From assembly GCA_964603445.1 (NCBI GenBank), contig CAZRUW010000099.1:1-33976 (forward strand): DNA of 33,976 nt. The letters are read 5' to 3'. The notes below the pieces were generated by a model. The model did not search any database. It was not told the origin of the DNA and saw only the letters and a program-made list of their open reading frames with translations. Made by a program: the position numbers and the translations under genes. The DNA is from an uncultured Gammaproteobacteria bacterium (GTDB lineage Bacteria > Patescibacteriota > Microgenomatia > JAMCZE01). Positions 5,087 to 29,826 of this stretch are shown here, one piece after another (the stretch's first letter is position 1; every line of letters begins with the position of its first letter).

Positions 5087-5090
5087 TTTA

Positions 5091-5625: not shown

Positions 5626-5679
5626 TTCTTGTGAACAAAAAAACCTGGCCCAAGTATTCCTATTCTTAGGCTAGGCGAT

Positions 5680-5736
5680 TTAGGCCCGCACCCTGAGACA
5701 TCTCGAAGGGGAGGACCGCAATCACGAAGTGATTAT
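5680..5736 (-). repeat. copy of the GNUCC/GGGNC hairpin element (map|infA junction)
   Basis: The plus strand reads TTAGGCCCGCACCCTGAGACATCTCGAAGGGGAGGACCGCAATCACGAAGTGATTAT. The second hairpin (AATCAC-GAA-GTGATT) overlaps the map stop codon. Confidence 0.8.
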
Positions 5737-6527: not shown

Positions 6528-6629
6528 TATTGACTTTATTGTTTGTATTGGGCTTTTTTTGGCGGCTCATGTCTGACCCGCAGTCGAAAAGTATTCTCAG
6601 TTCTTATGCCCAATCTATAGACCCAATCT

Positions 6630-6657
6630 GGTTTCCTTCCGGGAGGAACGGGAAACC
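6630..6657. other. 11-bp bulged hairpin in the adk-map spacer
   Basis: GGTTTCC-TTCC-GGGA-GGAA-CG-GGAAACC. The outer stem is 7 bp and the inner stem 4 bp. Confidence 0.6.
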
Positions 6658-6711
6658 TTTGATGTCTATTCCAAGCGGCTTCTGCTTCTTTATCATCCGG
6701 ACGCAGTACTG

Positions 6712-7275: not shown

Positions 7276-7291
7276 GAGATCCTTCGCTTCC

Positions 7292-8578
7292 TCAGGATGA
7301 GAATTTTTCGTAAGACCTGGTGACCAGCATTGTTTCAAACTGACGGGCAGTTTCCAAAACGACAGAGACAACAATGAGAATACCGGTGCCCCCAATAGTC
7401 AGGGTGGCGACGTTGCTTATGCCCTGTACGAAAGATGGCAGAACAGCAATCAGTCCCAGAAAAACAGCCCCGGCCAAAGTGATGCGGGTAATTATATAGT
7501 TGAGATAGTTTGAGGTGGGAGTGCCGGGACGAATCCCGGGGATAAAGCCGCCGAATTTTTGGATTTCGGAGGATATTTTGGCGGGATTAAAAATGATGGC
7601 CGTGTAGAAATAGGTGAAACCGATGACCAAAAAGAAGTAGACAAGGTTGTAGACAAGGCTGCTTGGCTGGAAAAGCCGGGATAAGGCTTGGGCGGTTTGG
7701 GAGATAAAAGGATTGGGAACCTGGCTAAGGTATTGGCCCAAAAGGGAGGGAATTAAAACCAGGGAAACGGCAAAGATTATGGGGATAACCCCGGCCTGGT
7801 TGACCCGAAGGGGCAAAAAAGTTGACTGGCCGCCGTACATTTTGTTTCCCCGGACACGGCGGGCGTAAATGATGGGGATTTGGCGAGTGGCTTCATTAAC
7901 CAGAACAATGCCGGCAATAACCAGAAAACCAACCCCGGCAAAAGCCAAGAGATTTAGGAATTGCTCGCCGGTGACGACGGAAACTGTCTGGCCAACAATC
8001 ACCGGGAAGCGGCCAATGATGCCGCCAAAAATCAACATGGAAATGCCGTTGCCGATGCCGTACTCGGTAATGAGTTCCCCAAGCCACATGAGGAGAACGG
8101 TGCCGGCGCAAAGCGTGAGAATCAAAGAAATCAAGGTGATTGGTGAAAGGACGGAGATTATATTCTGGTTTTTCAAAAGAGCGTAGGTCCCCAAAGCCTG
8201 AAGAGCGGCCAGAGGAACCGTGATCATGCGGGCATACTGGTTAATTTGCCTTTGGCCATATTCCCCTTCTTTGGAAAGAGCTTCCAGTTTGGGAAAAACC
8301 ATCTGGAGAAGTTGAAGAATAATAGTAGCATTTATATAGGGGTTAAGGCCCAGAGCCATAACGGAAAAATTGGCCAGAGTGCCCCCGGAAAAAATGTCCA
8401 GAAGGCCCAGAAACTGGTTCTGATTGAAAAGCTGTTTTAAGGCCACCAGGTCAATGCCCGGTACGGGAATGTGGGCAAACAGCCGGAAGACAAAAAAAAT
8501 CAGCGCGGTGAAAATGATTCTTTTGCGCAGTTCGGGCGTTCGCCAAGCTGAGACTATTGGAGTTAGGATTTTATTCAC
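7292..8578 (-). CDS. secY: preprotein translocase subunit SecY
   Basis: 428 aa, multi-TM and SecY-like throughout. The start codon is GTG at 8576-8578. Confidence 0.94.
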
Positions 8579-8617
8579 AGGCTATATCTTAGCACAAAAT
8601 CAGGCAGGTTTTTGTTC

Positions 8618-9625
8618 TCAAATATTTTTCGGAGCATATAATGCTCCCCGCGTCTTCCCCACTTTGACTATAAGACTTTCATCCATTAGAGCTTTGAGGT
8701 CGTAACGAAGCATCCGCGGGTCAATTTGCAGAAAACGGCGGCGCAGAAAATCTAAGGAAACCAATCGGTGGTCTCTGATTGTGTCGAGCAGTTCGCGACG
8801 GCGAGGAGGAAGCAGATCCTCGTCGGTGAATCTCCTCTTAGCAATAATTTTATCTTTGGCCTTTTTTGAAGCACTGACCAGAAATTCGAGCATAAGTTCC
8901 AAAAAGGCGGTAGCGTCGGAAGCGGCAGAATCCTCAATCGCATTGTAATAGAGAGTGCGGTTTTTTTCGATTTCTTCCTCAACAACCGTCAATCCTTTCA
9001 TTGAATAACCATTTCTAGTGAGAATAGCCAGTTGTAACAGTCGTCCCACGCGCCCGCTGCCATCCACGAATGGGTGGATTTTCTCCATAGTCAGGTGGGA
9101 AAGGACAGCTCGGACTGGAATAAGTTTTTCCCTGGAACTGTTAGCATAGGCAAGAAGGGTCAGAACCAAACCGGGAACTTCGCTTGGCGGTGGCGCGTGA
9201 TAAATCAATGTACCAGCTTGGTCAAATATTCCTTCCTGACTCTGGCGAAAAATACCAGTATATTCACTCGACAGAATGTTTCTCATTGCCCTTTCGTGAA
9301 GTTTGAGAAGGTGCTTTACCGTTATTTCTCTTTTCTTCATATATGTTTGAAGTACGTCAGTTATACAATGGGTAAGATTGGCTACCTCAACTTTTTTCTT
9401 TTCCTTGCCAGTCAAATCACGGAAACTGCTTACTTGTGCCCTGGTCAGAGGATTGCCCTCCACTCGGGCAGAATATAGAGAACTTCCCAGAATTGATTCC
9501 CGGCGAAAATTTTCTTCAACTTTAACCGGAACGTTGACGGAATCAATAGTAGCTCGATTGGCTTCGAGTTCGAGTAATAGGCCGGTAATTTTCTTGGTGA
9601 GCCGGTATTTAGGAGGAATTATCAT
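8618..9625 (-). CDS. Fic/DOC-family protein with an N-terminal inhibitory motif and a C-terminal winged helix
   Basis: Fic motif HPFVDGSGRVGR, SxxxEG motif SARVEG, and a C-terminal LLDTIRDHRLVSLDFLRRRF...LRYDLKAL wHTH. I chose the ATG at 9623-9625 (MIIPPKYRL...), giving 335 aa. Confidence 0.85.
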   Translation of the reverse strand: MIIPPKYRLTKKITGLLLELEANRATIDSVNVPVKVEENFRRESILGSSLYSARVEGNPLTRAQVSSFRDLTGKEKKKVEVANLTHCITDVLQTYMKKREITVKHLLKLHERAMRNILSSEYTGIFRQSQEGIFDQAGTLIYHAPPPSEVPGLVLTLLAYANSSREKLIPVRAVLSHLTMEKIHPFVDGSGRVGRLLQLAILTRNGYSMKGLTVVEEEIEKNRTLYYNAIEDSAASDATAFLELMLEFLVSASKKAKDKIIAKRRFTDEDLLPPRRRELLDTIRDHRLVSLDFLRRRFLQIDPRMLRYDLKALMDESLIVKVGKTRGALYAPKNI

Positions 9626-9689
9626 GTCACCAAATATTTCCAGATTTCTCCAGATAATGCAATATAGATTTAGTGTTACAATCTGTCTC

Positions 9690-10139
9690 ATGGTGCATGT
9701 TGCCATCATGAAGAGGTCCTGGGGGATGATTCCCAAGATTTTGTCCGGAGAAAAGACCATTGAGAGCCGGTGGTATAAAACAAGACGAGCACCGTGGGAT
9801 AGGATAAAGGAGGGAGAAGAAATCTATTTCAAAAATTCTGGGGAAATGGTAACTATCAAAGCTGTGGTGTCCGGATTACTTCAGTTCTCGGATCTCACAC
9901 CAAGAAAAATCAGAGAGATTCTGGATAAATTCGGACATGACGACGGTATCAAGCAAGAAAAGATTCCGTATTTTGCCAAGCTCTTTGCTGACAAAAAATA
10001 TTGCCTTCTGGTTTTTCTCAAAAATCCTCGGAGAGTTAAACCTTTTGAGGTAGACAAAACCGGTTTTGGAGCAATGAGCGCGTGGATTACTGTTGACTCG
10101 ATTGTTGAAGTGATTTCCGAGATTCATTCATCACCTTAA
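9690..10139 (+). CDS. ASCH (PUA-like fold) domain protein
   Basis: Starts MVHVAIMKRSWGMIPKILSGEKTIESRWYK..., carrying the ASCH signature I..G.KT.E.R. It is ~149 aa. The only plus-strand gene; divergent from Fic across 64 nt. The track ORF's 5' extension runs antisense to Fic and is spurious. Confidence 0.75.
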   Translation: MVHVAIMKRSWGMIPKILSGEKTIESRWYKTRRAPWDRIKEGEEIYFKNSGEMVTIKAVVSGLLQFSDLTPRKIREILDKFGHDDGIKQEKIPYFAKLFADKKYCLLVFLKNPRRVKPFEVDKTGFGAMSAWITVDSIVEVISEIHSSP

Positions 10140-10314
10140 CTGATATTTTTACGACTTTTCTTATCTCCCAAAAACTTATGCGTCTTTTATCGAGGCCATA
10201 GGCATGAAATTCCGTTGTTTTAAGATCTCTCCATTCTTGAGGCCTTACACCTAACCTGAGAGCAGTAAGTGTATCAGAATGCCAAACCTGTTTTAGAACA
10301 TCCACGCCAATCAT
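10087..10314 (-). CDS. small hypothetical protein, possibly an excisionase/MerR-type HTH
   Basis: 75 aa from the ATG at 10312-10314. LRLGVRPQEWRDLKTTEFHAYGLDKRRISFWEIRK resembles the excisionase-family pattern LGVs..t.yRw...g.lpAy..G.r..f...ei. Its 3' end overlaps the ASCH 3' end antisense by 53 nt. Confidence 0.35.
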   Translation of the reverse strand: MIGVDVLKQVWHSDTLTALRLGVRPQEWRDLKTTEFHAYGLDKRRISFWEIRKVVKISVKVMNESRKSLQQSSQQ

Positions 10315-10321
10315 TGCTGTT

Positions 10322-10327
10322 ATTATA
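10322..10327 (-). promoter_or_regulatory. -10 box TATAAT placed 7 nt before the small-ORF ATG (leaderless configuration)
   Basis: The minus strand reads GTAGTATAATAACAGCAATG. No convincing -35 was seen. Confidence 0.35.
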
Positions 10328-10440
10328 CTACTTTTCTGCAAAGCATCTTATTGTGCTCCAAAATAGGGTCCGACCCTGCAAAGACACAGCCTTCCAGATA
10401 TTACGAGGTCTTTCGAGAAGTTTCGAGATATTACAAGATA

Positions 10441-10878
10441 CTATTTTTCCACTTTTCCTCCGGCTTTTTCGATTTTTTCAGCAGCACTTTTAGAAGTGGG
10501 AAGTTTGATTGTTAGAGGAATTGTTAGATCGCCGTCGCCGAGGATTTTTACTTTGGTGACTTTTTTGTCAACAATATTGGCTTCCTGAAGAGTTTTCAGG
10601 GTTACTTCAGTATTAGGTTTGAGCGGGTTGAGATATTTGACGTTAACAACGGTTGGTCCTTCACGGAAGGATTTGTTTTTGCCTTTGCCCCGCATTAAAG
10701 GCAGTCTTTTCAGCCAGGAAGCCTGAAGGGAAGAACCGGCAAATTTCAAGCCGACAGTTTCCCGGGCTTTTTGGCCTTTAGTGCCCCGGCCGGAGGTTTT
10801 GACTTTGCCGCTGCCATGGCCTCGTCCGAGACGCTTTTTGGGCCGTTGCACAATTTTGGGAAGATTGTTCAAACTCAT
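10441..10878 (-). CDS. rplO: 50S ribosomal protein L15
   Basis: Contains RLGRGHGSGKVKTSGRGTKGQKAR. Confidence 0.95.
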   Translation of the reverse strand: MSLNNLPKIVQRPKKRLGRGHGSGKVKTSGRGTKGQKARETVGLKFAGSSLQASWLKRLPLMRGKGKNKSFREGPTVVNVKYLNPLKPNTEVTLKTLQEANIVDKKVTKVKILGDGDLTIPLTIKLPTSKSAAEKIEKAGGKVEK

Positions 10879-10897
10879 AGGTTTTAAGTGACTTAAG

Positions 10898-11440
10898 TTA
10901 CATAGGGCTCTTAGGAATTTTCTTGCTTCTTTTTCCCGGTTCTTTTTCTTTCATCTCGCCACTTTGATCTTTTGTCTCGTTCTTTGTAGTTTTGTTTACC
11001 GGTCTTAGCCTTCTTAAGGCTTCCATTGTAGCATAGACGTTATTAGCTTGATTGTTTGTCCCTAACACTTTGCTGGAAATATCTTTAATCCCGGCGGCAT
11101 TAGCCACAGCCCTGACAGCACCACCGGCAATAACGCCGGATCCCGGCGGGGCGGGCATCAAAAGAACCTTGGCCGCTCCCACTTTGACCAGAACTTGATG
11201 CGGAATAGTTGTGCCCTTCATTGGAACAGTCAGCAAGTGTTTCTTGGCATAGGTAACCGCCTTTTGGATCGAGCTTTGGACTTCGGGGCCTTGACCCAAA
11301 CCAACGCCGACACGGCCCTTCTTATCTCCAACGACCACTAAAACGCTGAAGCCGATCTGGTTTCCCCCGGCCGTTTTTTTGGACACACGATTGACCTGGA
11401 CAACTTTTTCTTCGAATTCTTTTGGCTCCTGTGAATACAT
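10898..11440 (-). CDS. rpsE: 30S ribosomal protein S5
   Basis: Contains VVVGDKKGRVGVGLGQG...APPGSGVIAGG. It has a ~35-aa Lys/Glu-rich C-terminal tail. Confidence 0.95.
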   Translation of the reverse strand: MYSQEPKEFEEKVVQVNRVSKKTAGGNQIGFSVLVVVGDKKGRVGVGLGQGPEVQSSIQKAVTYAKKHLLTVPMKGTTIPHQVLVKVGAAKVLLMPAPPGSGVIAGGAVRAVANAAGIKDISSKVLGTNNQANNVYATMEALRRLRPVNKTTKNETKDQSGEMKEKEPGKRSKKIPKSPM

Positions 11441-11478
11441 ACGAATTTACACGAATTTGTTACTAATTAACACGAATG

Positions 11479-11784
11479 TTAGAACTTAAGACCGTTTTCT
11501 CTGGCGGCGTCGGCAAATTTTTTGACGTTGCCATGATATTTATAACCGGCCCGGTCAAAGACAACAGTGGATATTTTTGCTTTCAACGCCTTTTGGGCAA
11601 TTTCTCTTCCGGCAGCGACCGGATCAACCGTTTTATTGACAGAAACCAGGGTTTGATTCTTAGTGTCATCGATTATCTGACCATAAAGATAGCGGTTGGA
11701 ACGAAAAATGACCAGACGGGGCTTTTGTGATGTACCCCGGATGGTCCTTTTGGTTTTGGCTCGTCTTTCTTGTCTGGTATTCAT
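11479..11784 (-). CDS. rplR: 50S ribosomal protein L18
   Basis: Contains RLVIFRSNRYLYGQIIDD...GYKYHGNVKKFADAAR. Confidence 0.95.
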   Translation of the reverse strand: MNTRQERRAKTKRTIRGTSQKPRLVIFRSNRYLYGQIIDDTKNQTLVSVNKTVDPVAAGREIAQKALKAKISTVVFDRAGYKYHGNVKKFADAARENGLKF

Positions 11785-11820
11785 GTATTTTATTACTAGA
11801 TCTTTTGCTTTGCTCAGGAT

Positions 11821-11840
11821 GATCCGCCAGTTGGCGGATC
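11821..11840 (-). other. perfect 8-bp hairpin overlapping the rplF stop codon
   Basis: GATCCGCC-AGTT-GGCGGATC. No U-run follows it in mRNA sense. Confidence 0.6.
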
Positions 11841-12399
11841 ACTTTGCTCCTGCTGCACCTGCAGCTTTGGCCGCCTTGCCGGCCTTACGGCGAATTGCTT
11901 CCCCAATGTAGCGTATTCCCTTTCCTTTATATGGCTCCGGCGGCCGGATCCGCCGTACCTGGGCAGCTGCTTCCCCAACCAACTGCTTATCAATTCCTCG
12001 GATATTAATTTTCGTGTTATCAAAAACCTCAAAAGTTATTCCTTCCGGGGCAGGAAACTTGACAGGATGAGAAAAACCGACGTTAAGAACCAGAGTGTTT
12101 CCTTCAAGAGCGGCGCGATAGCCAACTCCCACTAATTCCAGTCCTTTATTCCAACCCTGAGTAGCGCCCAGAATCATGTTGGCTAAGAGAGTCCTGGTTA
12201 ACCCATGGAGGGCCTTGGCTTTTGGCGTTTCGGTTACTCTTTCAACAAGTACGTCCGACCCGGCGACACGAACCTTGACTTCAGGCCGAAATTCCTGACT
12301 CAAAGTACCCTTCGGCCCGGTAACCGAAACATGATTATTATCAATTTTAATAGTAATTTCTGAAGGAATTTTTACCGGTTTTGTGCCTATCCTGCTCAT
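11839..12399 (-). CDS. rplF: 50S ribosomal protein L6
   Basis: Starts MSRIGTKPVKIPSEITI at the ATG 12397-12399. The track ORF's 27-aa extension lies in a repeat spacer. The C-terminal tail is Ala/Lys-rich (KAGKAAKAAGAAGAK). Confidence 0.93.
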   Translation of the reverse strand: MSRIGTKPVKIPSEITIKIDNNHVSVTGPKGTLSQEFRPEVKVRVAGSDVLVERVTETPKAKALHGLTRTLLANMILGATQGWNKGLELVGVGYRAALEGNTLVLNVGFSHPVKFPAPEGITFEVFDNTKINIRGIDKQLVGEAAAQVRRIRPPEPYKGKGIRYIGEAIRRKAGKAAKAAGAAGAK

Positions 12400-12550
12400 A
12401 ATGTTCTTGATATTTTGAAGATGGAAATTCTCGATATTCTTGAACTTGATGTCTTGATTTCTTGAGATATTGCTATTCAAAAAGTCAAGAATTCAAAAAC
12501 TCCAGATCAAAATATCCATTTTTTTACTTTAGGATTTCCGTAACATTTAT

Positions 12551-12946
12551 CTACCATACTTCGCAAATAACTTCGCCGCCAAGGCCCCGGTGTCTGGCTT
12601 CATTATCAGTCAAAAGGCCGGCCGGTGTGGAAACTATGGCTATTCCCAAACCACCAAGGACTCGGGGAAGTTGGGATCTTTTGACATAAATTCGCAATCC
12701 TGGTCGGCTGACGATCTTGACGTCTGTCAGGGCACTTTTTTTGTGATCATACTTCAGTTTGAGAGTCAGTTCTTTTTTAGAGCCGTCGGTTGAAATTTCC
12801 TGACTGTCCAGGAAGCCTTGTTTTATAAGCAAATTGGCAACCGACTCCTTGGTTTTTGACCATGGAACCGGAACCTCGCTTTTATTGGCAAGATAACCAT
12901 TTTTAATTCTTATTAACATGTCCCCGACAGGATTATTTGTTACCAT
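12551..12946 (-). CDS. rpsH: 30S ribosomal protein S8
   Basis: Contains [12 protein letters not shown] and ends ...GGEVICEVW. Confidence 0.95.
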
Positions 12947-13128
12947 GATGCACGAACAACACCCGGAAGTTCACCCCGATGGGCCAATTCCCGGAAACAT
13001 AACCGGCAAAGACCAAACCGACGCATATAAGACCGGCTCCGACCACACAACTTGCACCGGTTTTTAAACCGGACAGTATATTTTTGTTTTCCGGTTGTAA
13101 ATTTGACGATGTCAGAAACCTTGGCCAT
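12940..13128 (-). CDS. rpsN: 30S ribosomal protein S14, type Z (zinc-binding)
   Basis: 62 aa with [23 protein letters not shown] (CxxC...CxxC). It overlaps the rpsH start by 7 nt. Confidence 0.94.
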
Positions 13129-13143
13129 AATTTGATATTGATC

Positions 13144-13680
13144 TTATTTTTTAAATGGCATCCCTAAAGCCTTAAGTAATGCTTCTGCTTTGGTATCTTC
13201 TTTTGCTGAAGTGACGATCGTCACTTCCAGACCGCGTATTTTATCAATTTTTCCGTAATCAATCTCGGGAAAGACGATTTGTTCGGCAAATCCAAGGCTA
13301 TAGTTCCCCTGACCATCAAAGCTGTCAGCGGGAACACCATGAAAGTCTCTCACCCTGGGAAGAACAATTGTTGTCAGTTTCTCCAGAAAGTCGTACATTC
13401 GGCTGCCGCGAAGAGTGACAGAAAGGCCAACCGGCTCGCCCTCGCGCAGCTTGAAGGCGGCAATAGACTTCCGGGCTTTTCTGACGACAGGTTTTTGGCC
13501 GGTGATAGTCATTAGCTGTTCAGAAACAACATCCAAAACTTTTTTGTCACTTAGGGCTTCCTTGAGACCAACACTGACCACAACCTTAGTAATCCCGGGC
13601 ACAGCCATAATATTTTGGAGTTTTAACCCCTCCTTAAGTTTTGGTCTGATTTCCTGATAATATTTTTGTTTAAGATTCAT
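13144..13680 (-). CDS. rplE: 50S ribosomal protein L5
   Basis: Contains SLGFAEQIVFPEIDY. I chose the ATG at 13678-13680 (MNLKQKYYQEIRPKL); the track starts 5 codons earlier at a TTG. Confidence 0.93.
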   Translation of the reverse strand: MNLKQKYYQEIRPKLKEGLKLQNIMAVPGITKVVVSVGLKEALSDKKVLDVVSEQLMTITGQKPVVRKARKSIAAFKLREGEPVGLSVTLRGSRMYDFLEKLTTIVLPRVRDFHGVPADSFDGQGNYSLGFAEQIVFPEIDYGKIDKIRGLEVTIVTSAKEDTKAEALLKALGMPFKK

Positions 13681-13719
13681 TCTCTTCAATATCAAAAATT
13701 AAATATCTTTGATATTTTG

Positions 13720-14025
13720 TTATATTTCCTGCCCGCATTTTCGACAGATCCGCACTTTTTCTTTTTCGGTCAGTTTATATCCGACCCTGGTTACCTGTTT
13801 ACACTTTGGACAGATTAAGGCAACATTGGCAACAGGCAAGGGCCGGACAAAATCAACAATGCCCCCCTTTTGCCCATCACCGCGGGGTTTGAGATGTCTT
13901 TTAAAGACATTCACTCCGGCGACAGTGACCCTGTTGTCTTTGGGCCAAATTTTCTCCACAACACCTTCCTTGCCCAGATCTTTGCCGGCCGTTATTTTGA
14001 CTTTATCACCTTTTTTTAATTTCAT
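13720..14025 (-). CDS. rplX: 50S ribosomal protein L24
   Basis: Starts MKLKKGDKVKITAGKDLGKEG (KOW motif) at the ATG 14023-14025. The C-terminal region has CPKC...CRKC. Confidence 0.93.
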   Translation of the reverse strand: MKLKKGDKVKITAGKDLGKEGVVEKIWPKDNRVTVAGVNVFKRHLKPRGDGQKGGIVDFVRPLPVANVALICPKCKQVTRVGYKLTEKEKVRICRKCGQEI

Positions 14026-14075
14026 AGAGTAATCGTTAATATACAAATCTTATTTCAATATACGAATATACAAAT

Positions 14076-14450
14076 TTATAAGACTTCGGACGCCATGGAA
14101 ATAATTTTATTAAACCCTCTGTCTTTTAATTCCCGCGCTACCGGACCAAAGACCCTGGTGCCGATGGGATCTTTATTTTCCAGACCGTTGATTACAATCC
14201 CGGCGTTGTCGTCAAACCGGATATAGCTGCCGTCAGTCCGGCGATGTTCTTTGTGAACCCGGGCAACAACAACAAAGACAGATTGGGAATCTTTAACCAT
14301 CCCGTTGGGATCCGCCCCGTCCACGACACAACGGACAATATCACCAAGGTAGGAAAACTTTCGCGTGGAACCCCCGTATAAATGGATCACCCGGAGCTTG
14401 TGGCCCCCGGTGTTATCGGCTGGTTTTAAGATAGTTCGGCGTTGAATCAT
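14076..14450 (-). CDS. rplN: 50S ribosomal protein L14
   Basis: Starts MIQRRTILKPADNTGG and contains ...VFGPVAREL. Confidence 0.95.
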   Translation of the reverse strand: MIQRRTILKPADNTGGHKLRVIHLYGGSTRKFSYLGDIVRCVVDGADPNGMVKDSQSVFVVVARVHKEHRRTDGSYIRFDDNAGIVINGLENKDPIGTRVFGPVARELKDRGFNKIISMASEVL

Positions 14451-20134: not shown

Positions 20135-21322
20135 TTAGGCAATAATTTTTGTCACGGCACCGGCCCCAACTGTTTTACCGCCTTCGCGGATGGCAAAACG
20201 CATGCCGTCCTCCATGGCGACAGGCTGGATTAATTTGACCTTCATTTTGGCGTTGTCGCCCGGCATGACCATCTCCACACCTTCCTGCAAGGTCACTTCA
20301 CCCGTCACATCCGTGGTGCGGATGTAGAACTGTGGCCGGTAACCGGAAAAGAACGGGGTGTGCCGCCCGCCCTCTTCTTTGGCCAGGATATAGACCTGGG
20401 CTTCAAACTCAGTGTGGGGGGTGATTGACCCGGGTTTGGCGATAACCTGGCCCCTTTCAACCTGCTCCTTTTCGATGCCCCGAAGCAAAAGGCCGACGTT
20501 ATCGCCAGCTTGACCTTCGTCAAGTTGTTTTCGGAACATTTCAACCCCGGTAACAACAGTTTTCTGGGTCGGTTTGAGGCCAACAATTTCGACCTCCTCA
20601 TTGACTTTAACGACACCGCGCTCAATTCGGCCCGTGACGACAGTTCCGCGTCCCTTGATGGAAAAGACGTCCTCAATGGGCATGAGGAAGGGTTTATCCA
20701 GCTCGCGAACCGGGGTAGGAATATAGCTGTCAACGGCATCCATGAGTTCCATAATGTGCTTTTCCTCTTCCGGGTCACCTTCAACAGCTTTAAGAGCTGA
20801 CCCTTTAATCACCGGGGCTTTTTCGCCGTCAAAACCATATTTAGTCAAGAGTTCCCGGACCTCAACCTCGACAAGATCAAGAAGTTCCTTATCGGTAACC
20901 ATGTCAACCTTGTTAAGGAAGACAACAATAGCCGGGACATTAACCTGTTTTGCCAACAGCAAATGCTCCCGGGTTTGAGCCATGGGACCATCAGCGGCGG
21001 AAACCACCAGGCTGGCACCGTCGACCTGAGCAGCGCCGGCGATCATGTTTTTGATGTAGTCGGCGTGGCCCGGCATGTCAATGTGGGCATAGTGTCTTTT
21101 GTCGGTTTCGTATTCGACGTGGGCGATGTTAATGGTGACGCCACGGGCTTTTTCTTCAGGAGCGCTGTCAATGTCCTCGTAATTCATCGCCTTGGCGAAG
21201 CCTTTTTTGGCGAGAACCTTAGTGATGGCTGAAGTGAGGGTAGTTTTACCGTGGTCGACGTGACCCATGGTCCCAATGTTAACGTGGGGTTTGTCACGGA
21301 TGAATTTTGCTTGATCAGCCAT
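20135..21322 (-). CDS. tuf: elongation factor Tu
   Basis: Has the GTPase motifs [18 protein letters not shown] and NKVD, and is 395 aa. Confidence 0.97.
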
Positions 21323-21569: not shown

Positions 21570-23660
21570 TTACTTCTTGGTGATAATCTGCTCCTGAATA
21601 TTTTTGGGGACTTCTTCGTAGTGAGAAGGCTCCATATAGTAAGATGCTCGGCCCTGAGACATGGAGCGAAGTTTGGTGGAATAGCCTGAGAGTTCAGCCA
21701 AAGGAACCATGGCTAAAATGATGGTGGCATTGGCGCGATTACTGGTTCCCAGAATTTGAGCCCGTTTGGCGGAAAGGTCGCCAATGACATCACCCATAAA
21801 CTCGTCAGGGGTAGTCACTTCGACCTTCATAATTGGTTCCAAAAGGGTCAATTCTGCCTTTTTGCAGGCATCCTGAAGAGCTATGGAACCGGCAATTTGA
21901 AAGGCGACATCGGAAGAATCAACATCATGATAAGAGCCGTCATAGAAAGTGACTGTGAGATCGGTTAGGGGGAAGCCGGCCAAAATTCCGTTAGCGGCAC
22001 ATTCCTTGGTCCCCTTTTCAACTGAAGGAATAAATTCGGCCGGAACAGCTCCGCCTTTAATAGCGTTAATAAATTCCCAGCCTTCACCCCGGGGCTTGGG
22101 AGAAACTTTGACGAGAGCGTGGCCATATTGTCCCCGGCCGCCGGTTTGACGAATGTATTTGCCTTCTCCGGTGGCATCTTTTTTGATGGTTTCCTTATAG
22201 GCCACCTGGGGAGCACCAACATTGGCATCAACGTTCATTTCCCGTTTCATGCGGTCAACCAAAACCTCAAGGTGAAGCTCCCCCATGCCGGAGATGATGG
22301 TCTGGCCGGTTTCTTTGTTACTTTTGACTCGAAAGGTGGGGTCTTCTTCCATCAGGCGCTGAAGAGCATAGCCCAGTTTCTCCTGGTCGGCTTTGGTCTT
22401 GGGTTCAATGGCCAGAGAAATGACCGGTTCGGCAAAAGATATACCTTCCAGGACGAGAGGATTATTTTGGTCACACAAGGTATCGCCGGTGCGGGTGTCT
22501 TTAAGTCCCACGACGGCCACAATTTCTCCGGCGTAGGCTTCCGGAATCTCCTCCCGCTGGTTGGCGTGCATTAAAAGAAGCCGGCCGATGCGTTCTTGCT
22601 GGCCCCGGGTGGCGTTGTAGACATAGGAGCCGGATTTGATAGTGCCGGAATAGATGCGGACGTAATAGAGCTTTCCGACGTGAGGGTCGAGTTGCACTTT
22701 GAAAGCCAAGCCGGCCAAGGGAGCTTCTTTGTTTGTTCCCCGGGTTTCCTCCTGGTTTATTTTTGGATTAAGGCCGGTGACTGCCGGCCGATCCAGAGGT
22801 GAGGGTAAATAGTCAACAATGGCATCCAAAAGGGGTTGAACCCCTTTATTGCGCAAACTGGTGCCGGTGTAAACCGGAACGAGTTGGTAGGAGATAACAG
22901 CCTGGCGCAGAGCTTTTTGCAGTTCCGCAACTGCCGGTTGAGTACCATTAAGATATTTTTCCAAAAGCCCCTCGTCGGTTTCAGCGATTTGTTCCACCAG
23001 AAGATGGCGGTATTTTTCTACCTCGGTAGCGTCCAGTTCCGGGGGAATTTCTTTTTTAATTTCAAATTTAGCTCCCAGCTCATCACTGCCCCAGACGTAG
23101 GCTTCTTCTTTAATCAGGTCATAAACTCCCCGAAAATTGTTTTCCACGCCAATAGGAAGGACCATAACGGCCGGCTTGACTCCCAGACGCTCTTTGATTG
23201 CTTCCACGGTTTTATAGAAATTGGCGCCAAGTTTATCAATTTTATTGACAAAAATAAGCCTGGGAACTTTGTATTTATCAGCCTGACGCCAGACAGTCTC
23301 GGTTTGTGATTGGACTGTTTCTTCGGCATCGAGGATGGTTACCGCACCGTCCAAAACGCGCAATGAGCGTTCAACCTCGGCGGTAAAGTCCACGTGGCCG
23401 GGGGTATCGATAATATTAATCCGGAAATCACGCCAGAAAGTGGTAGTGGCAGCAGAGACAATGGTAATGCCCCGTTCTCTCTCCTGGGGCATCCAATCCA
23501 TCTGGGTGGTACCTTCATCAATGTCCCCGATTTTGTAAGTTTTGCCAGTATAAAAGAGAATCCGCTCGGTGGTGGTAGTTTTTCCCGCGTCAATATGGGC
23601 AATAATGCCGATGTTGCGGATTTTATCCAAAGGAAGTGACCGGGTTTTTGTGTCAGCCAT
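21570..23660 (-). CDS. fusA: elongation factor G
   Basis: Contains AHIDAGKTTTTERIL and DTPGHVDF. I chose the ATG at 23658-23660 (MADTKTRSLPLDKIRNIGI), giving 696 aa. Confidence 0.96.
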   Translation of the reverse strand: MADTKTRSLPLDKIRNIGIIAHIDAGKTTTTERILFYTGKTYKIGDIDEGTTQMDWMPQERERGITIVSAATTTFWRDFRINIIDTPGHVDFTAEVERSLRVLDGAVTILDAEETVQSQTETVWRQADKYKVPRLIFVNKIDKLGANFYKTVEAIKERLGVKPAVMVLPIGVENNFRGVYDLIKEEAYVWGSDELGAKFEIKKEIPPELDATEVEKYRHLLVEQIAETDEGLLEKYLNGTQPAVAELQKALRQAVISYQLVPVYTGTSLRNKGVQPLLDAIVDYLPSPLDRPAVTGLNPKINQEETRGTNKEAPLAGLAFKVQLDPHVGKLYYVRIYSGTIKSGSYVYNATRGQQERIGRLLLMHANQREEIPEAYAGEIVAVVGLKDTRTGDTLCDQNNPLVLEGISFAEPVISLAIEPKTKADQEKLGYALQRLMEEDPTFRVKSNKETGQTIISGMGELHLEVLVDRMKREMNVDANVGAPQVAYKETIKKDATGEGKYIRQTGGRGQYGHALVKVSPKPRGEGWEFINAIKGGAVPAEFIPSVEKGTKECAANGILAGFPLTDLTVTFYDGSYHDVDSSDVAFQIAGSIALQDACKKAELTLLEPIMKVEVTTPDEFMGDVIGDLSAKRAQILGTSNRANATIILAMVPLAELSGYSTKLRSMSQGRASYYMEPSHYEEVPKNIQEQIITKK

Positions 23661-23666
23661 TTTAAA

Positions 23667-23695
23667 ATGCCGTTTTCCGGCACAAGGCAATTATA
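23667..23695 (-). promoter_or_regulatory. weak candidate: a TATAAT -10 box plus a small hairpin before fusA
   Basis: On the minus strand, TATAAT is at 23690-23695, followed by UGCCG-GAAAA-CGGCA-UUUUAAA-AUG. No good -35 is present (TTCCTC at 17 nt). Confidence 0.3.
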
Positions 23696-23734
23696 GCGCA
23701 AAATCGTCGCGCGAGGAATACTTACTTTTTTCTC

Positions 23735-24139
23735 CTAAGTTAAATCAGTGAATGGGTTATATGCTACTTCCCACAAATAGTCATCGGGGTCAGCAAAGTA
23801 ACCTCCATACCCGCCCCAAAAAACATCTTGGGGTTTTTTAACCATCTTGGCCCCAACAGAAACGGCTTTTTTAATGATTTCGTCCACTTCTTCTTTAGAG
23901 CTAACATTATGAGAAAGGGTAACTCCAGAAAAACCTGAGCCCTCTTTTGAAACGGTGGCGTCTTTAGCCAATCGATCTTTAGGATATAAGCAAAGCCAAG
24001 TTCCCTCCAATTCGAACATGGCGAAGCCGTCACTTTCTTTGTAATTATGAGTTTTAAACTTTAAACCATCTTTATAGAAGCGAAATGATTTATCGAAATT
24101 GGAAACGCCAAGGGTTATTAAACTAATTTTTGGCTTCAC
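23735..24139 (-). CDS. VOC (glyoxalase/bleomycin-resistance/dioxygenase) family protein
   Basis: 134 aa. It starts ISLITLGVSNFDKSFRFYKDGL and ends WGGYGGYFADPDDYLWEVAYNP. The start codon is GTG at 24137-24139, 7 nt after the upstream stop. Confidence 0.8.
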   Translation of the reverse strand: MKPKISLITLGVSNFDKSFRFYKDGLKFKTHNYKESDGFAMFELEGTWLCLYPKDRLAKDATVSKEGSGFSGVTLSHNVSSKEEVDEIIKKAVSVGAKMVKKPQDVFWGGYGGYFADPDDYLWEVAYNPFTDLT

Positions 24140-24146
24140 AACTTGA

Positions 24147-24992
24147 TTATATCTCTTTTAGAAACTTACTGAGGCAAACACCTTGCGATTTTTTGATTTC
24201 CCATTCGTCCAGATGTATTGTTTGGAAACCATGATCAGTCAAAAACTCCTCGCGCTTTTGGTCTTTTTCTTTTGCCCCCGGGATATTGTGCCAATAGGAG
24301 CCGTCGCACTCGATTAGAAGGTTTGTCCCTTTTATCTGAAAATCAGCGTGATATTTGCCAATGTGGACTTCTTGATCGAATGAAATATTTTTATTTGTTA
24401 AGTAGTCACGGACAATTTTCTCAATAGAGGTCTCACCCTTAAACCGGATATAACAGCGTCGCGAACAAAAAGTGCCCTTGCCTTTGTTTGTCTCCCAAGT
24501 TGGAAGTTGAAATTCTTTGTGGCAATTTTTACAAATTTTGGAAACATAGTCCCGTTCAAAATTATCTTTGCACACCTTGCTACAAAAAACTGCTTTAGTG
24601 GCAAAAGCGGGGGCTCTTTCCATTAATTTTTCGCACTGTTTACAAGTCAAGTGGACGTGTTTTTCTTGACGAGATTTTTGGAAGCATTCAAAGCTACAAA
24701 AGAAACCGAAACCTTGTTCAACTAAGTAGGCTTTTACTTCAAATTTCTTGCCGCATCTTTGACAAGTTTTAATCTGCTTTCTTTTTGTAGAAGAATGGTA
24801 ACAATCGCTAGAGCAATAGTTAATTTTGTGTTTTTGAAACGGCCACAAATTAATATTCTTGCCACAACCAAAACAAGTTGTCAAAACGCGACGTTTTTGA
24901 CTCTCCGATTTACATTTTCGCGAGCAAAATTTTCGGTGTCGTTGAATTTGCTCGCTAGTTAGTAAGTTAGAACAAAATTGACATTTTATCAT
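24147..24992 (-). CDS. five tandem Cys4 (TRASH/FCS-like) zinc-ribbon repeats fused to a DUF559/Vsr-like PD-(D/E)XK endonuclease domain
   Basis: There are 5 repeats of C-x2-C-x15-17-(F/Y)C-x3-C. The C-terminus is IVRDYL...YHADFQI...LLIECDGSYWHN...EKDQKREEFLTDHGFQTIHL. I chose the ATG at 24990-24992. Confidence 0.75.
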   Translation of the reverse strand: MIKCQFCSNLLTSEQIQRHRKFCSRKCKSESQKRRVLTTCFGCGKNINLWPFQKHKINYCSSDCYHSSTKRKQIKTCQRCGKKFEVKAYLVEQGFGFFCSFECFQKSRQEKHVHLTCKQCEKLMERAPAFATKAVFCSKVCKDNFERDYVSKICKNCHKEFQLPTWETNKGKGTFCSRRCYIRFKGETSIEKIVRDYLTNKNISFDQEVHIGKYHADFQIKGTNLLIECDGSYWHNIPGAKEKDQKREEFLTDHGFQTIHLDEWEIKKSQGVCLSKFLKEI

Positions 24993-25048
24993 CAAATACC
25001 AGCGTAAATCCGAAAAGAAGACGAATCAAGAAGTAATATACTACAGGT

Positions 25049-25531
25049 CTACCAGCGAAGGTGACTGAAAACTTTATTCGCTTCTGCCATTTTGTGAACC
25101 ATGTCGCGTTTCTTGATGGCGTTACCGGTATTATTTAGAGCATCCTGGATTTCTGCTGCCAGTTTTTCGGCAAAAACATGATATTCCTTATTCGACCTTG
25201 ACCGGGCCGCTTCCAAAAGCCATTTTAAGGCTAAGTGGGTCTTGCGGTCACCACGAACTTCGGAGGGAACCTGATAGGAAGCGCCACCGACCCGCCGGGG
25301 GCGAACTTCCATTTTAGGAGCAATTGTACTGACTGCCTGTTCCAGAACCTTGTCCGGTTCCTGATCCGGGAGTTTAGTTTTTAACAGTTCCAGGGTTTTA
25401 TAGATTTGCCCTGCAGCCACGGATTTTTTTCCGTCCCGCATAGTCTTATTGATCAGCTTAGTCACAAGACGGCTGTTATAGACCGGGTCACCTTGAGTTT
25501 GGCGCTTGATGGCTTGTTTACTTCTGGGCAT
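25049..25531 (-). CDS. rpsG: 30S ribosomal protein S7
   Basis: 160 aa. It follows rpsL, contains ...VRPRRVGGASYQVP and ends ...SHLRW. Confidence 0.95.
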   Translation of the reverse strand: MPRSKQAIKRQTQGDPVYNSRLVTKLINKTMRDGKKSVAAGQIYKTLELLKTKLPDQEPDKVLEQAVSTIAPKMEVRPRRVGGASYQVPSEVRGDRKTHLALKWLLEAARSRSNKEYHVFAEKLAAEIQDALNNTGNAIKKRDMVHKMAEANKVFSHLRW

Positions 25532-25535: not shown

Positions 25536-26006
25536 TTAGGCAGCCGGCGCTGATGGCGCAGGGGTGGGAGCCGCCGCGGCTGTTGTTCTTATTCCTGCCT
25601 CACCTGCCTTTGTACCGTATTTGCTTCGCGATTGCTTCCGGCCGACGACGCCGCCGGTATCAAATTTCCCCCGGACAATGTGATATTTCACTCCGGGGAG
25701 ATCCCGAACCCGGCCACCGCGAACCAGAACAATGGAGTGTTCGGCCAGAGTGTGGCCGACCCCTTGAATATAGGCAGTGACTTCCTGCTTGTTGGACAGT
25801 CTGACCCGGGCCACTTTTCTCAAGGCGGAATTAGGTTTCTTGGGGGTCATTGTCTTGACGATAGTACAGACTCCCCGCTTGAAAGGAGCAGCGATAGTTT
25901 TCATTTGGCGGTCTTTAGCGTTAAAAAACTTCCGCAGGACCGTAGCCCGGATTTTTTTAGGCTTATTTTTTCGCCCTTTTTTGATAAGTTGATTGATTGT
26001 TGGCAT
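25536..26006 (-). CDS. rpsL: 30S ribosomal protein S12
   Basis: Contains [12 protein letters not shown] and [18 protein letters not shown]. It has a ~23-aa Ala/Pro-rich C-terminal tail. Confidence 0.95.
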
Positions 26007-26029: not shown

Positions 26030-29000
26030 CTAGGTTTCAGTAACAAGCTTTTGAACTTCATTTCCTTCCAGACTGGCTCTTTCGGGAGATGTCGGAATTA
26101 GGCGGCCAATTATGACATTTTCTTTCAGGCCAATCAAATTGTCCTGGCCGGCACGAATAGCGACATCGGAAAGAACTTCGGTGGTGCGTTCAAAGGAAGC
26201 CGCCGAGAGCCAAGAGTCAGTGTAAAGAGCGGCCCGAGAAATACCAAGAATGGTTATCTGAGCCGTGGCCGGTTCTCCCCCGGCGGCGATGACCCGGGCA
26301 TTTTCGGCTTCAAACGCGGCTTTGTCCACAAACTCCCCAGGAAGGAAAACTGTGTCTCCGGAAGTGTCAATGCGCACTTTGTCAGACATTTTGCGGACAA
26401 TAACCTCAAAATGTTTGTCATTAATGGGGATTCCCTGAGATTCGTAAACAACCTGGAGCTCGTCAATAAGGTAGTGCTGGGCTCCAAAGAGACCACGGGT
26501 GGCCAAGACGTCTTTGATATCCAAATAGCCGGAGGTCAATTGAGTCCCGGCCGCAACAAGATCACCGTTGTCAACGCTGAGGGTCGCGGTCAAGGGAACA
26601 ATATATTCGCGCTCTTCAACGGGTTTGACACCGTGGCTGCGAACCCGAATTTTGAAGCCCTCCTCGGTCTCGATGACCTCAACCTTACCGGCAATCTCGG
26701 CAACGGGCGAAAGGATCTTTGGCGATCTGGTTTCAAAAATTTCTTCCACTCTAGGCAAACCTTGAGTCACGTCCTGAGCCACTACCCCTCCGGTGTGTTT
26801 GGTCCGCAGTGTCAGTTGGGTTCCCGGTTCGCCAATGGATTGGGCAGCCACAATGCCTACCGGAGTTCCAAGTTCGACCAGCTTTCGAGAGCTGAAGTCC
26901 CGACCATAACAAAGCTGGCAGAGACCATACTTGGCCTGACAGGTTAAAGGTGAACGAACCAAAACGGAGGTAATTTTTTCCTTCTCAATCTGGGGGAGAA
27001 GGTCTTCGGTAATTTCCTGACCGGCTTTGGCCAGAACCTTTTTCCCGGACTTGAGATCAACAGCCAAAATACGACCTAAAATGCGCTGGGGAAAAGTTGC
27101 GGCCCGTTTATCAGCAGCCGAGATTTCAATACCGTTTTTAGTGCCGCAGTCAGATAGACGAATGATGGCGTCGTGAGAAACGTCCACTAACCGGCGGGTA
27201 AGGTAACCGGCGTCGGCGGTTCTGAGGGCGGTATCAGCCAGACCTTTTCGTGATCCTCTGGTTCCGGTGACGTACTCAAACACTGACAGGCCTTCCCGGA
27301 AATTGGATTTGGTGGGAAGAGGCACAATTCTTCCGGTAGGGTCGTTCATCAGTCCCCGCATGCCGGAAATTTGCTTGACATTATCCTTGCTGGACTTGCC
27401 TGCCCCTGATTGGAGAATAACTTTCACAGCGTTGTCCAGCGGATAGGCCTCCCAGGTCAGGTCGGCAATTCTGTTAGTAATGTCAATCCATATGTCGATT
27501 TGCAGTTGGCGCATTTCTTCGGCAGTTATAAGACCGTTCTTGTAGTTTTCTTCCACCTCGGCACTCTCTTTTTCTCCTTGGGCGATAATTTCCTGTTTGT
27601 TACCGATCATAACCAGATCAAAAATGCCCACGGAAACTCCGGATTCCATGGAGCCGGTGAAACCAATTTCCTTAAGGTTATCCAAAAGGGACACCAGCTC
27701 CGAACGGGTGCAGACATCCATCGCCTGGTTGAGAAGAGATTTCAGCCGTGACAGATTGATAGTTTCGTTGACAAAACCAATAACCGGGGGAAGTTTTTCG
27801 CAGAGAAGGATTCGGCCGACAGTGGTTTCGACAATCGACTTATTTTGCCAAACTTTTATTTTTTGACGAAGAGCAATCTTTTTTTCCTGATAGGCTAGAA
27901 TCGCTTCGGCCATGTCAGCAAAAACGGTGGGGACAACAGCTTTTGATTCGTCGAGAGAAGTGTAGTAATAAATTCCCAGAATCATCTCCTTGTTGGGGAA
28001 GGCCACGGGCATGCTGTCAGCCGGTTTTAAGAGATTGTGTTCTGCCATCATTAAATTAACAGCTTCGCTTTTGGATTGAGAGGACAAGGGGACATGAACG
28101 GCCATTTGGTCGCCGTCAAAATCAGCGTTGTAGCCGGTGCAAACTAACGGGTGAACCTGGATAGCGGCACCCTCGATTAGAACAGGGAAAAAGGCCTGAA
28201 TTCCCAACTTGTGCAAAGTGGGCGCCCGATTGAGGAGAACCGGATGGTTTTTGGTAATTTCTTCCAAAATATCAAAAACTTCAGGGACTCTTTTTTCAAG
28301 AACGTACTTAGCCGAGCGAACATTGGGAGCAATCCCCCGAATAATCAGTTCCCGAAGAACAAAGGGCTTAAACATTTCCAGGGCCATTTCTTTGGGAAGA
28401 CCACACTCGGAAAGTTTCAGTTTGGGACCAACAACAATGACTGAGCGTCCGGAATAGTCAACACGTTTTCCCAAAAGATTCTGGCGGAACCTCCCTTGCT
28501 TGCCACGGAGCATATCCGAAAGACTTTTAAGTTCAGCCACGTTGGCCCGGGTGCTGGTTCGCTGGGTGGAATCAATTAAAGAATCGACAGCCTCCTGAAG
28601 CATGCGCTTTTCATTGCGCAAAATAATCTCCGGAGCTCCCAGATCAATCAGGTGTTTGAGACGGTTATTGCGGTTGATAACCCGACGGTAGAGGTCATTC
28701 AGATCAGAAGTGGCAAACCGACCGCCGGAGAGCTGAACCATAGGACGAAGATCGGGAGGAATAACCGGAAGAGTTTCCAGAACCATCCACTCCGGCCGGA
28801 CACCAGAGCGGCGCATACCATCAATCACCCGCAGCCGTTTGGTGGCTTTGACCTTTTTTTGGCTGGAGGAATCAAGGATTTCCTGACGCAGATCGGCAGT
28901 CATTTTTTCCAGATCCATCCGCCGAAGGATAGAAAGAATGGACTCCGCGCCCATAGAAACTTCGATAAAGTCAGCGGCATCGTATTCCGAAAGCTTGAGA

Positions 29001-29764
29001 TATTCTTCCTCTGTAATTTCAGTTACCGGTTTGACGCTTTTGACCAGATCCAGAAGAGCCCGATAAATTTCCGCGAGGCGGTTTTTTTCCAAAGCCAGAT
29101 CACTTTCCAGTTGGGCAATCTTTTGTTTGGTAGAAAGTTCTATCTCTTTGACAATGAGGTCGAATTGAGCTTTATCCTTGACTTTAGATTGTTGTTCTTT
29201 AACTTTGGCTTCCTGGTCATCTTCCTCTTTTTGAATTCTATTTTCATAATCGGCGATGAGGGATTTCTGACGTTCCTCCATCGTTTCTTTGAGATGGCCA
29301 ACGACTTTGTCTCTGGCAGATTCGTCAACGGAAAGGACTAAATAGGAAGCAAAATAGATGACATTCGAAAGAGATTTCGGGGAGAGATCCAGGATGAGAG
29401 AAAGCTTGGACGGGGCTCCCTTGAAGTACCAGACATGGGCAATGGGAACAGCCAAAGTAATGTGTCCCATCCGTTCACGACGAACTTTCGATTGAGTGAC
29501 TTCAACACCACATTTGTCACAGATTATCCCGCGGTAGCGGATCCGTTTGTATTTGCCACAGTAACATTCCCAGTCTTTGGTCGGACCAAAAATCGTTTCC
29601 GAAAAGAGGCCGTCCTTTTCGGGTTTAAGAGTGCGATAGTTAATCGTTTCCGGCTTAGTGACCTCGCCATGTGACCACGAGAGGATATCCTGGGGCGAGG
29701 CGAGGGAAATTTTTAACCCCTTAAAGTCGACAATATGATCGATGGTATCCTGTGGTTTATTCAT
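26030..29764 (-). CDS. rpoC: DNA-directed RNA polymerase beta' subunit
   Basis: Has the catalytic motif [16 protein letters not shown] chose the ATG at 29762-29764 ([16 protein letters not shown]); the track's 16-codon extension translates the spacer repeat element. Confidence 0.96.
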
Positions 29765-29771
29765 AATGGTT

Positions 29772-29826
29772 TTAGCCCCGCACCGAGTCTGACTCGGGAG
29801 GAGCGCAAGCACGCAAGCGCTTATTC
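29772..29826 (-). repeat. copy of the GNUCC/GGGNC hairpin element filling the rpoB|rpoC spacer
   Basis: The plus strand reads TTAGCCCCGCACCGAGTCTGACTCGGGAGGAGCGCAAGCACGCAAGCGCTTATTC. Its end overlaps the rpoB stop codon (29821-29823). Confidence 0.8.

Follow-up and report, generated by a model that had tools for sequence, protein, structure and literature searches.

The junction between rpsG and fusA was analysed in the genome of an uncultured Patescibacteria member (Microgenomatia; GenBank assembly GCA_964603445.1), on contig CAZRUW010000099.1, a stretch of 33,976 nucleotides hereafter called the window. The gene in question encodes a zinc-finger nuclease and lies in the spacer between these two translation genes. 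From the open reading frames (ORFs) and the annotation of the window, the order on the minus strand is rpoB-rpoC-rpsL-rpsG-nuclease-VOC-fusA-tuf-rpsJ-rplC, where VOC denotes a gene for a VOC/glyoxalase-fold protein. A preliminary description had placed the nuclease and VOC genes on the same strand between rpsG and fusA, and the ORF coordinates and Pfam domains bear this out. The features of the junction are as follows.

26030-29812, minus strand: rpoC.
25536-26006, minus strand: rpsL.
25049-25531, minus strand: rpsG (ribosomal protein S7), the left anchor of the insert.
25032-25048, minus strand: native flank 3' of rpsG, which aligns with the empty allele of the relative L010; left insert edge.
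25001-25029, minus strand: promoter-like element of the nuclease gene, with TTGATT at 25024-25029, a 17-nucleotide spacing and TACGCT at 25001-25006.
24147-24992, minus strand: nuclease coding sequence, ATG start, 281 amino acids (database entry P0001).
24426-24989, minus strand: zinc-finger array of five C4 fingers, residues ~3-190.
24150-24437, minus strand: Vsr-like EDxHD nuclease domain, residues ~187-282.
23735-24139, minus strand: VOC/glyoxalase-fold coding sequence, GTG start, 134 amino acids.
23664-23695, minus strand: -10 box of fusA (TATAAT, 23690-23695), hairpin TGCCG/CGGCA (23668-23682) and T-run (23664-23667); right insert edge.
21570-23660, minus strand: fusA (EF-G), the right anchor.
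20135-21322, minus strand: tuf.

The nuclease frame can also be read from an upstream TTG (24147-24995, 282 amino acids). Its stop codon (24147-24149) is separated by 7 nucleotides from the GTG start of the VOC gene (24137-24139), a gap and a start codon that had been described correctly. For fusA the start is most likely the ATG at 23660 (MADTK...), rather than a TTG upstream at 23690. The TATAAT and small hairpin previously reported in front of fusA are present, and with this start they fall in a non-coding 5' leader.

When the window was locally aligned with the empty L010 allele, the insert came out at ~23696-25031: homology extends through the rpsG stop codon and about 17 nucleotides beyond it, and resumes exactly at the fusA TATAAT. 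By composition the inserted genes look foreign, with a GC content of 0.35-0.39 over 24001-25000 vs 0.47-0.53 in the flanks. At third codon positions (GC3) the nuclease ORF, at 0.37, is the lowest among window ORFs of at least 150 amino acids; the VOC ORF stands at 0.36, and in eight of nine loci compared the nuclease gene falls below every flanking housekeeping gene. The nuclease and VOC genes are the only ORFs of the insert. Its boundaries carry neither terminal inverted repeats nor a target-site duplication, and no tRNA was found. An insertion sequence, transposon or integrative element was rejected on these grounds.

The nuclease passes the cut-offs of two Pfam families, REase_MTES_1575 (PF18741; 41.5 bits vs 38.2) and DUF559 (PF04480; 37.5 bits vs 20.6). 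A profile built from 21 homologues found its best structural match in 3R3P, the catalytic domain of I-Bth0305I (E=2.6e-13), followed by the DUF559 structure 3HRL and then by Escherichia coli Vsr. An AlphaFold model of the protein (mean pLDDT 89.2) likewise gave 3r3p as the top Foldseek match, with a target TM-score of 0.73 and an rmsd of 2.9 Å, ahead of Vsr and 3HRL. Residues E192, D218, E229, D231, G232, W235, H236 and D245 are invariant in the 21 sequences, and E192, D218, E229, D231, H236 and D245 were assigned as the catalytic set. In the profile alignment the counterparts of the invariant residues in I-Bth0305I are E170, D196, the acidic residue of IEVNG, N208, H213 and D222. The active site is judged to be intact, not degenerate, because the invariant residues map in this way onto the E, D, acidic, H and D residues that define the EDxHD family (Taylor et al. 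2011, PMC3239194). We assign the nuclease domain to the EDxHD/Vsr-like homing endonuclease family, and its fold belongs to the Vsr-like (EDxHD) branch of the restriction-endonuclease fold instead of the canonical PD-(D/E)XK type named in the preliminary description.

The likeness to Vsr raises a second reading, in which the protein is a very-short-patch mismatch-repair endonuclease of the Vsr type or another generic DUF559 repair nuclease. The fold does match 1VSR and 1CW0, and weak matches to Pfam Vsr and TIGR00632 were obtained; these scores are far under threshold, however, at 15.4 bits vs a cut-off of 27 for Pfam Vsr (PF03852) and 20.3 bits vs 97.85 for TIGR00632. No cytosine-methyltransferase domain was detected in the 22 window ORFs scanned against Pfam (4-14450 and 23735-24995), and both the five-finger array and the relatives in phage head modules described below are ill-suited to mismatch repair. 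We regard a repair role of this kind as highly improbable.

The N-terminal part of the protein, formerly taken for a single zinc ribbon, consists of five tandem C4 fingers of the form C-x2-C...(F/Y)C(S)-x2-C, which resemble FCS/MYM fingers in the alignment of the 21 homologues. Seventeen of the 20 finger cysteine positions are invariant in these sequences, and at least 90% of the sequences keep the cysteine at two others. The FCS signature can be seen in all five repeats (for example KFCSRKC and TFCSRRC), and the DNA that encodes the fingers forms an internal direct repeat with a period of 111 nucleotides. Against finger structures the nuclease-family profile gave weak matches to MYM 2DAS (E=0.013), FCS 2L8E (E=0.019) and FCS 2W0T; PF06467 (zf-FCS/MYM) is recorded only for the relatives P0019 and P0024, and for P0019 the match is faint. 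The array is presumed to be a DNA-recognition module. It also appears to behave as a shuffled DNA-binding module of the kind typical of homing endonucleases, since the same array occurs in the phage 'HNH endonuclease' families phrog_1271 and phrog_559 and the homologue P0026 carries an HNH domain.

Close homologues of the nuclease are few, with 27 matches among 5.8 billion proteins. The 15 distinct homologues with 36-61% identity, all of them Patescibacteria proteins, are encoded immediately downstream of rpsG, and on every contig long enough to show it fusA lies farther downstream. In all, the nuclease occupies the rpsG-fusA gap in 16 lineages from two phyla. The distance from the rpsG stop codon to the nuclease gene is 21-126 nucleotides in all 16 lineages, and that from the nuclease gene to fusA varies from 42 nucleotides to 5.3 kb.

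The second phylum is represented by P0019, a homologue with six fingers and 32% identity that is also encoded between rpsG and fusA (L191, 3219-4193; also L192 and L193). The EF-G encoded on these contigs is 91% identical to that of an Anaerolineales (Chloroflexota) metagenome-assembled genome. The Anaerolineales nuclease gene starts 21 nucleotides after rpsG, is without the promoter found in Patescibacteria, and has a GC3 of 0.50 vs 0.83-0.88 in rpsL, rpsG and fusA. This contrast in composition is a clear sign, as judged from the sequences, of horizontal arrival at the same spacer in another phylum.

Beyond these cellular loci the family is largely viral. A search of IMG/VR returned 455 matches; the motif E.[DN]G..WH is kept in all 65 distinct IMG/VR proteins, and 48 of the 65 have four or five fingers. 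Where they were examined, the phage homologues adjoin genes for portal, prohead-protease, capsid or terminase proteins, and HNH or GIY-YIG endonuclease genes adjoin the homologue in two of three phage contigs of the first set inspected. In the viral contigs L111, L121 and L138 the homologue lies between the portal and prohead-protease genes (~6001-6900 in each), and this spot suggests a second conserved homing site for the nuclease family. An exhaustive profile search gave 1,239 clusters at 50% identity with E <= 1e-30, and 14,161 with E <= 1e-10. One distant, cellular-looking homologue (L040) adjoins a DnaB-like helicase and ORFs of no assigned function, probably in a mobile element.

The position of the gene among translation genes invites another explanation, namely that its product serves the translation operon by binding or processing RNA. 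FCS fingers are capable of RNA binding, and the Vsr-like fold is also found in RAP/FASTK-type organellar RNA-binding proteins, some of them in mitoribosomes. Foldseek matches to mitoribosomal proteins of Toxoplasma and Tetrahymena (E ~3e-3 to 5e-2), the site within a translation gene cluster and co-divergence with the host would fit such a role. The complete catalytic set of a DNA endonuclease is nevertheless invariant, the best matches in both sequence and structure are to a DNA homing endonuclease, the phage relatives sit in head modules, and the gene is dispensable in close relatives. A role in RNA binding or processing thus appears very remote.

The rpsG-nuclease spacers of the homologous loci were compared by anchoring them on the -35 hexamer. 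The promoter TTGATT-N17-TACGCT noted in the preliminary description is present in the window, and the corresponding element TTGAYT-N17-TAnnnT was found in all 13 homologous loci with a complete upstream spacer. It ends 8 nucleotides before the ATG in the window and 5-11 nucleotides before the start codon in 10 of the 13 loci. No Shine-Dalgarno sequence was seen upstream of the nuclease gene in the 13 spacers. The closeness of the promoter to the start codon and the lack of a visible Shine-Dalgarno sequence together suggest that the nuclease mRNA is leaderless or nearly so. A generic scan for promoters and terminators flagged neither the nuclease promoter nor the fusA hairpin, and it found promoter-like sites to be no commoner than in shuffled sequence; support for the nuclease promoter comes solely from its conservation across loci.

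The same element contains a short repeated motif. TTCGG is its commonest 5-mer, present in 11 of the 13 spacers vs a mean of 0.6 and a maximum of 3 in shuffles, a count that is inflated by kinship among the loci. Copies of TTCG(G) are spaced exactly 11 nucleotides apart, in the window as TTCG at 25022-25025 and TTCGG at 25010-25014, and repeats at the same position occur in L002, L021, L022, L029, L030 and L034-L038. We speculate that these phased repeats may form an operator, possibly one bound by the finger array itself. I-TevI reportedly represses its own promoter in a comparable way.

The neighbouring VOC protein belongs to the Pfam Glyoxalase/VOC family (PF00903; 53 bits vs a cut-off of 20.6), in which it has more than 4000 homologues at about 65-78% identity that form a family of ~134-residue proteins. 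Identity as a FosA/FosB fosfomycin-resistance protein was rejected, the best score being 36.7 bits vs an NCBIfam cut-off of 180. Its best solved relative is 3BQX, an uncharacterised 'glyoxalase-related enzyme' (E=2.9e-15); the VOC protein aligns with it over its full length, and nothing ties the 3BQX-type family to nucleases. The preliminary description had read the two genes as a functional cassette, in which the nuclease would be a toxin with the VOC protein as its immunity or sequestration partner, or the two would form a mobile pair. The 7-nucleotide gap, the shared strand and the similarly low GC3 (0.37 and 0.36) gave this idea some appeal. None of the 15 other nuclease loci at the rpsG site has a VOC gene, however, so that the pair recurs as a unit in none of them, the very outcome that the preliminary description had named as refuting its idea; and in L036, L039 and L191 the nuclease stands alone between rpsG and fusA. 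Nor do the VOC homologues, with more than 4000 at about 70% identity, lead back to a nuclease: the two contexts examined hold unrelated genes, with an RNase H-like protein, a flavin reductase or a short-chain dehydrogenase as neighbours. PADLOC returned no match for the VOC protein. The homing neighbourhood suggested earlier is retained for the nuclease, and the toxin-immunity or mobile pair is dismissed as scarcely credible. The comparison of loci indicates that the VOC gene is an unrelated passenger that in the window probably shares a transcript with the nuclease gene; the 7-nucleotide spacing is a local accident of insertion.

Other genes have entered the same junction, and the leader of fusA offers a reason. 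In nuclease-bearing and nuclease-less genomes alike, fusA has a -10 box of its own in front of it, and a hairpin and a U-run come after the box. The hairpin lies within ~7-20 nucleotides of the -10 box and was found upstream of fusA in the window and in L008, L009, L010, L011, L030, L036 and L038. Its stem varies by sub-clade (GUGCCG/CGGCAC, GCUUCC/GGAAGC and GAACCC/GGGUUC) and the structure is kept, so that the region looks like a terminator-like leader or attenuator. An Rfam scan of the whole window found no known RNA family, and the hairpin is accordingly uncatalogued; attenuator-like leaders before fusA have been predicted in streptococci (PMC2965389). With its own -10 box and leader, fusA-tuf is expressed independently of rpsL-rpsG in this clade; inserts are therefore non-polar, and the junction tolerates cargo. 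The content between the nuclease gene and fusA differs by locus, and the cargo always lies on the fusA side of the nuclease, as listed here.

L002: small ORFs.
L021: genes for radical-SAM, DUF3795 and SNase proteins.
L022: a PMT-family glycosyltransferase gene on the other strand.
L003 (Collierbacteria): ~5.3 kb with aminotransferase, radical-SAM and MttB genes and a Gp49/HTH pair.
L030: 2.2 kb of uncharacterised sequence.
L036, L039 and L191: nuclease alone, with fusA within 42-150 nucleotides.

Such one-sidedness would make sense if the nuclease were held in place by a target at or close to the rpsG 3' end and neighbouring DNA were co-converted with it.

Presence of the nuclease gene is patchy among close relatives. 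Of the five closest relatives recovered, whose rpoC is 74-75% identical, only L002 carries it. Six nuclease-less relatives were compared; four have other inserts of 0.8-6.9 kb at the junction and two have an intact junction of 90-150 bp, namely L010, with a clean empty junction of 90 bp, and the more distant L012. The order rpsG-fusA, described at the outset as almost invariant in bacteria, is therefore not so in this clade, and the intact junction that the preliminary description proposed to look for does exist in relatives. The other inserts are diverse. In L009 (11169-11683) a small two-gene pair (87 and 84 amino acids) resembles a toxin-antitoxin module; in L008 (10484-12568) a 169-residue ORF on the other strand is accompanied by a 519-residue membrane protein; L007 (10557-10934) has a 125-residue ORF behind a TTGAAC-N17-TATAGT element; and L011 (10466-17391) has 6.9 kb of housekeeping-like ORFs that by eye, from their translations, resemble guaB, guaA, an Xaa-Pro peptidase and a cyclophilin. 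Two nuclease copies look decayed, a state for which assembly error is also possible. That of L029 has an in-frame TAA (~1551) between finger 5 and the nuclease domain, and that of L039 has an N-terminal frameshift, with a finger remnant (836-925) in another frame and a shortened ORF of 209 amino acids (916-1545). Exact copies of the window S7 protein were looked up for population polymorphism, and none is on record.

Where the gene is retained it is under purifying selection with its function preserved: dN/dS is 0.10-0.13 for the gene as a whole, with 0.03 for the nuclease domain and 0.20 for the fingers. The simplest history would be a single ancient entry from a phage-type pool, followed by mostly vertical descent with repeated loss and decay, and at least one separate or horizontal arrival in Anaerolineales.

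Taken as a whole, we consider it probable that the window holds a free-standing gene of the homing-endonuclease type, which originated in a phage radiation and settled in the rpsG-fusA spacer of Patescibacteria. The lineage would stem from a radiation carried mostly by phages, in which the genes lie between conserved head genes, and would then have settled in the spacer of a Microgenomates-type Patescibacteria clade, where it has its own promoter and an apparently leaderless mRNA. The five fingers are presumed to read a long DNA site that the EDxHD domain would cut. Alleles without the nuclease would be cleaved at or near the 3' end of rpsG, and repair from a nuclease-bearing copy would bring in the gene together with whatever adjoins it. 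Inheritance would later have become mostly vertical in Patescibacteria, under purifying selection and with repeated loss and decay. The separate promoter and leader of fusA-tuf would let unrelated cargo build up between the nuclease and fusA, the VOC gene of the window being one such passenger.

Several observations weigh against this account. The cleavage site, the target and the homing event are deduced, and none has been observed. The nuclease tree largely matches that of rpsL+rpsG (Pearson r=0.85 for pairwise identities over 45 pairs), and all 100 bootstraps recover the Patescibacteria rpsG-site copies as one clade, which stands beside a phage radiation; nothing therefore points directly to recent transfer between Patescibacteria lineages, and vertical descent with losses fits the Patescibacteria pattern equally well. 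The nuclease-less inserts of L007-L009 and L011 contain no nuclease remnants (all E > 0.1). The Anaerolineales copy groups with the Patescibacteria clade in only 22 of 100 bootstraps, and a shared ancestry of the site preference in the two groups is unproven. The low GC3 of the nuclease gene could partly reflect weak expression beside highly expressed genes. Finally, long persistence under purifying selection is equally expected of a domesticated gene.

The last point leads to the alternative of domestication, under which the gene descends from a homing endonuclease, no longer homes, and is kept by host-level selection as a gene of the str region. Its role would then be site-specific DNA binding or cleavage, in defence against phages or competing DNA, in repair, or in regulation of the fusA-tuf promoter. 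Congruence with the host tree across class-level divergence, the fully supported Patescibacteria clade, a dN/dS of ~0.1 and the conserved promoter with its phased TTCGG repeats are all compatible with this, as are weak PADLOC matches to the nuclease domains of defence proteins. A settled host gene would sit poorly, however, with its dispensability (L011, L012 and four of the five closest relatives lack the gene), with the decayed copies in L029 and L039, with its foreign composition in Anaerolineales and with phage relatives in classic homing-endonuclease niches. The nuclease also has no conserved partner gene. Domestication is in our view unlikely, yet not negligible.

A bolder version of the homing-endonuclease reading would have the lineage still actively homing in cellular chromosomes, with the 3' end of rpsG or the adjoining spacer as its target in at least two phyla. 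It would repress its own leaderless promoter through TTCGG operators phased at 11 nucleotides, and its double-strand breaks would make the spacer a hot spot for capture of accessory genes such as the VOC gene and for their co-conversion from strain to strain. We put this forward tentatively, as possible and on balance doubtful. If true, it would amount to a way of shuttling genes within the operon region that streamlined bacteria conserve most.

For the settled homing-type gene that we favour, the implications are several. Both in Patescibacteria, which are ultra-small and uncultured, and in a Chloroflexota bacterium, a nuclease lineage is tied to one and the same spacer, flanked by two universal translation genes. 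This explains why a supposedly invariant rpsG-fusA junction varies within the clade, and it gives a concrete case in which to ask how selfish nucleases manage to last so long and whether accessory genes are captured with their help. The architecture is large, with about 1,200 clusters at 50% identity matching the profile strongly, and apparently undescribed, and it may offer a modular scaffold of zinc fingers and EDxHD nuclease that recognises long sites. In annotation, it would be a mistake to treat the neighbouring VOC gene as a partner or an immunity factor.

Two further features of the window were recorded in the surrounding genes. Ribosomal protein S12 (rpsL, 25536-26006) has a C-terminal extension rich in Ala, Pro and Thr, and the S12 of relatives aligns only to residues 1 to ~130-149 of the window protein. 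A second odd insertion lies in the ribosomal cluster. The genes rplO and secY are normally adjacent in bacteria; here rplO/L15 (10441-10878) and secY (7292-8578) are separated by a 380-residue ORF of the Fic/DOC family (8618-9760, minus strand; PF02661, E=1.9e-15) and a spacer of ~680 bp with a low GC content of 0.40-0.41 (9761-10440).

Free-standing homing endonucleases are known mainly from phages and organelles, and the nuclease can be set beside several such systems. A literature search, incomplete in coverage and so no proof of absence, found nothing on an EDxHD enzyme with FCS fingers or on an insertion between rpsG and fusA.

The nearest known enzymes are the EDxHD homing endonucleases. 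They include I-Bth0305I, a characterised enzyme encoded in an intron (PMC3239194), and free-standing forms from "fractured genes" that bring control elements of their own (Dassa et al. 2009, PMC2677866). The window protein has the same catalytic residues (E, D, acidic, H and D) and the same bipartite plan of an N-terminal DNA-binding module and a C-terminal nuclease, with binding by the fingers predicted here. As in that family, where members can stand alone with control elements of their own, the gene occupies a conserved site and shows presence and absence among relatives. It differs in having five FCS/MYM-like fingers where those enzymes have NUMOD or helix-turn-helix elements, and in having D231 in place of Asn208 of I-Bth0305I. 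It is also not embedded in an intron or intein or flanked by the halves of a split intein; it sits between two separate housekeeping genes in bacterial chromosomes.

In placement the closest parallels are the free-standing homing endonucleases of T4-like phages and cyanophages (seg, mob and F-CphI; PMC2988022, PMC6083498), which are likewise intergenic between conserved genes, have their own promoters, are polymorphic for presence among relatives and combine DNA-binding and nuclease modules. Phage members of the window family resemble them further in lying between portal and prohead-protease genes. The nuclease domains of the seg, mob and F-CphI enzymes are of the GIY-YIG, HNH or Endo VII kind and their hosts are phages, whereas the window gene resides in a cellular host and has apparently descended mostly vertically over class-level divergence. 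The LAGLIDADG homing endonucleases found in insertions of CPR rRNA genes (PMC11270868) share the theme of a homing-type nuclease at a highly conserved information-processing locus in Patescibacteria; they belong to another family and lie inside intervening sequences of rRNA genes, unlike the free-standing gene between protein genes described here. E. coli Vsr and bacterial DUF559 proteins (1VSR, 3HRL) share the nuclease fold and the core catalytic residues, but the window protein falls below the Vsr cut-offs, bears a large zinc-finger array that is absent from Vsr and plain DUF559 proteins, and has no evident mismatch-recognition features. What is new here relative to all of these is the zinc-finger reading head, the niche between two universal genes in Patescibacteria and Anaerolineales, and the long residence there under selection.

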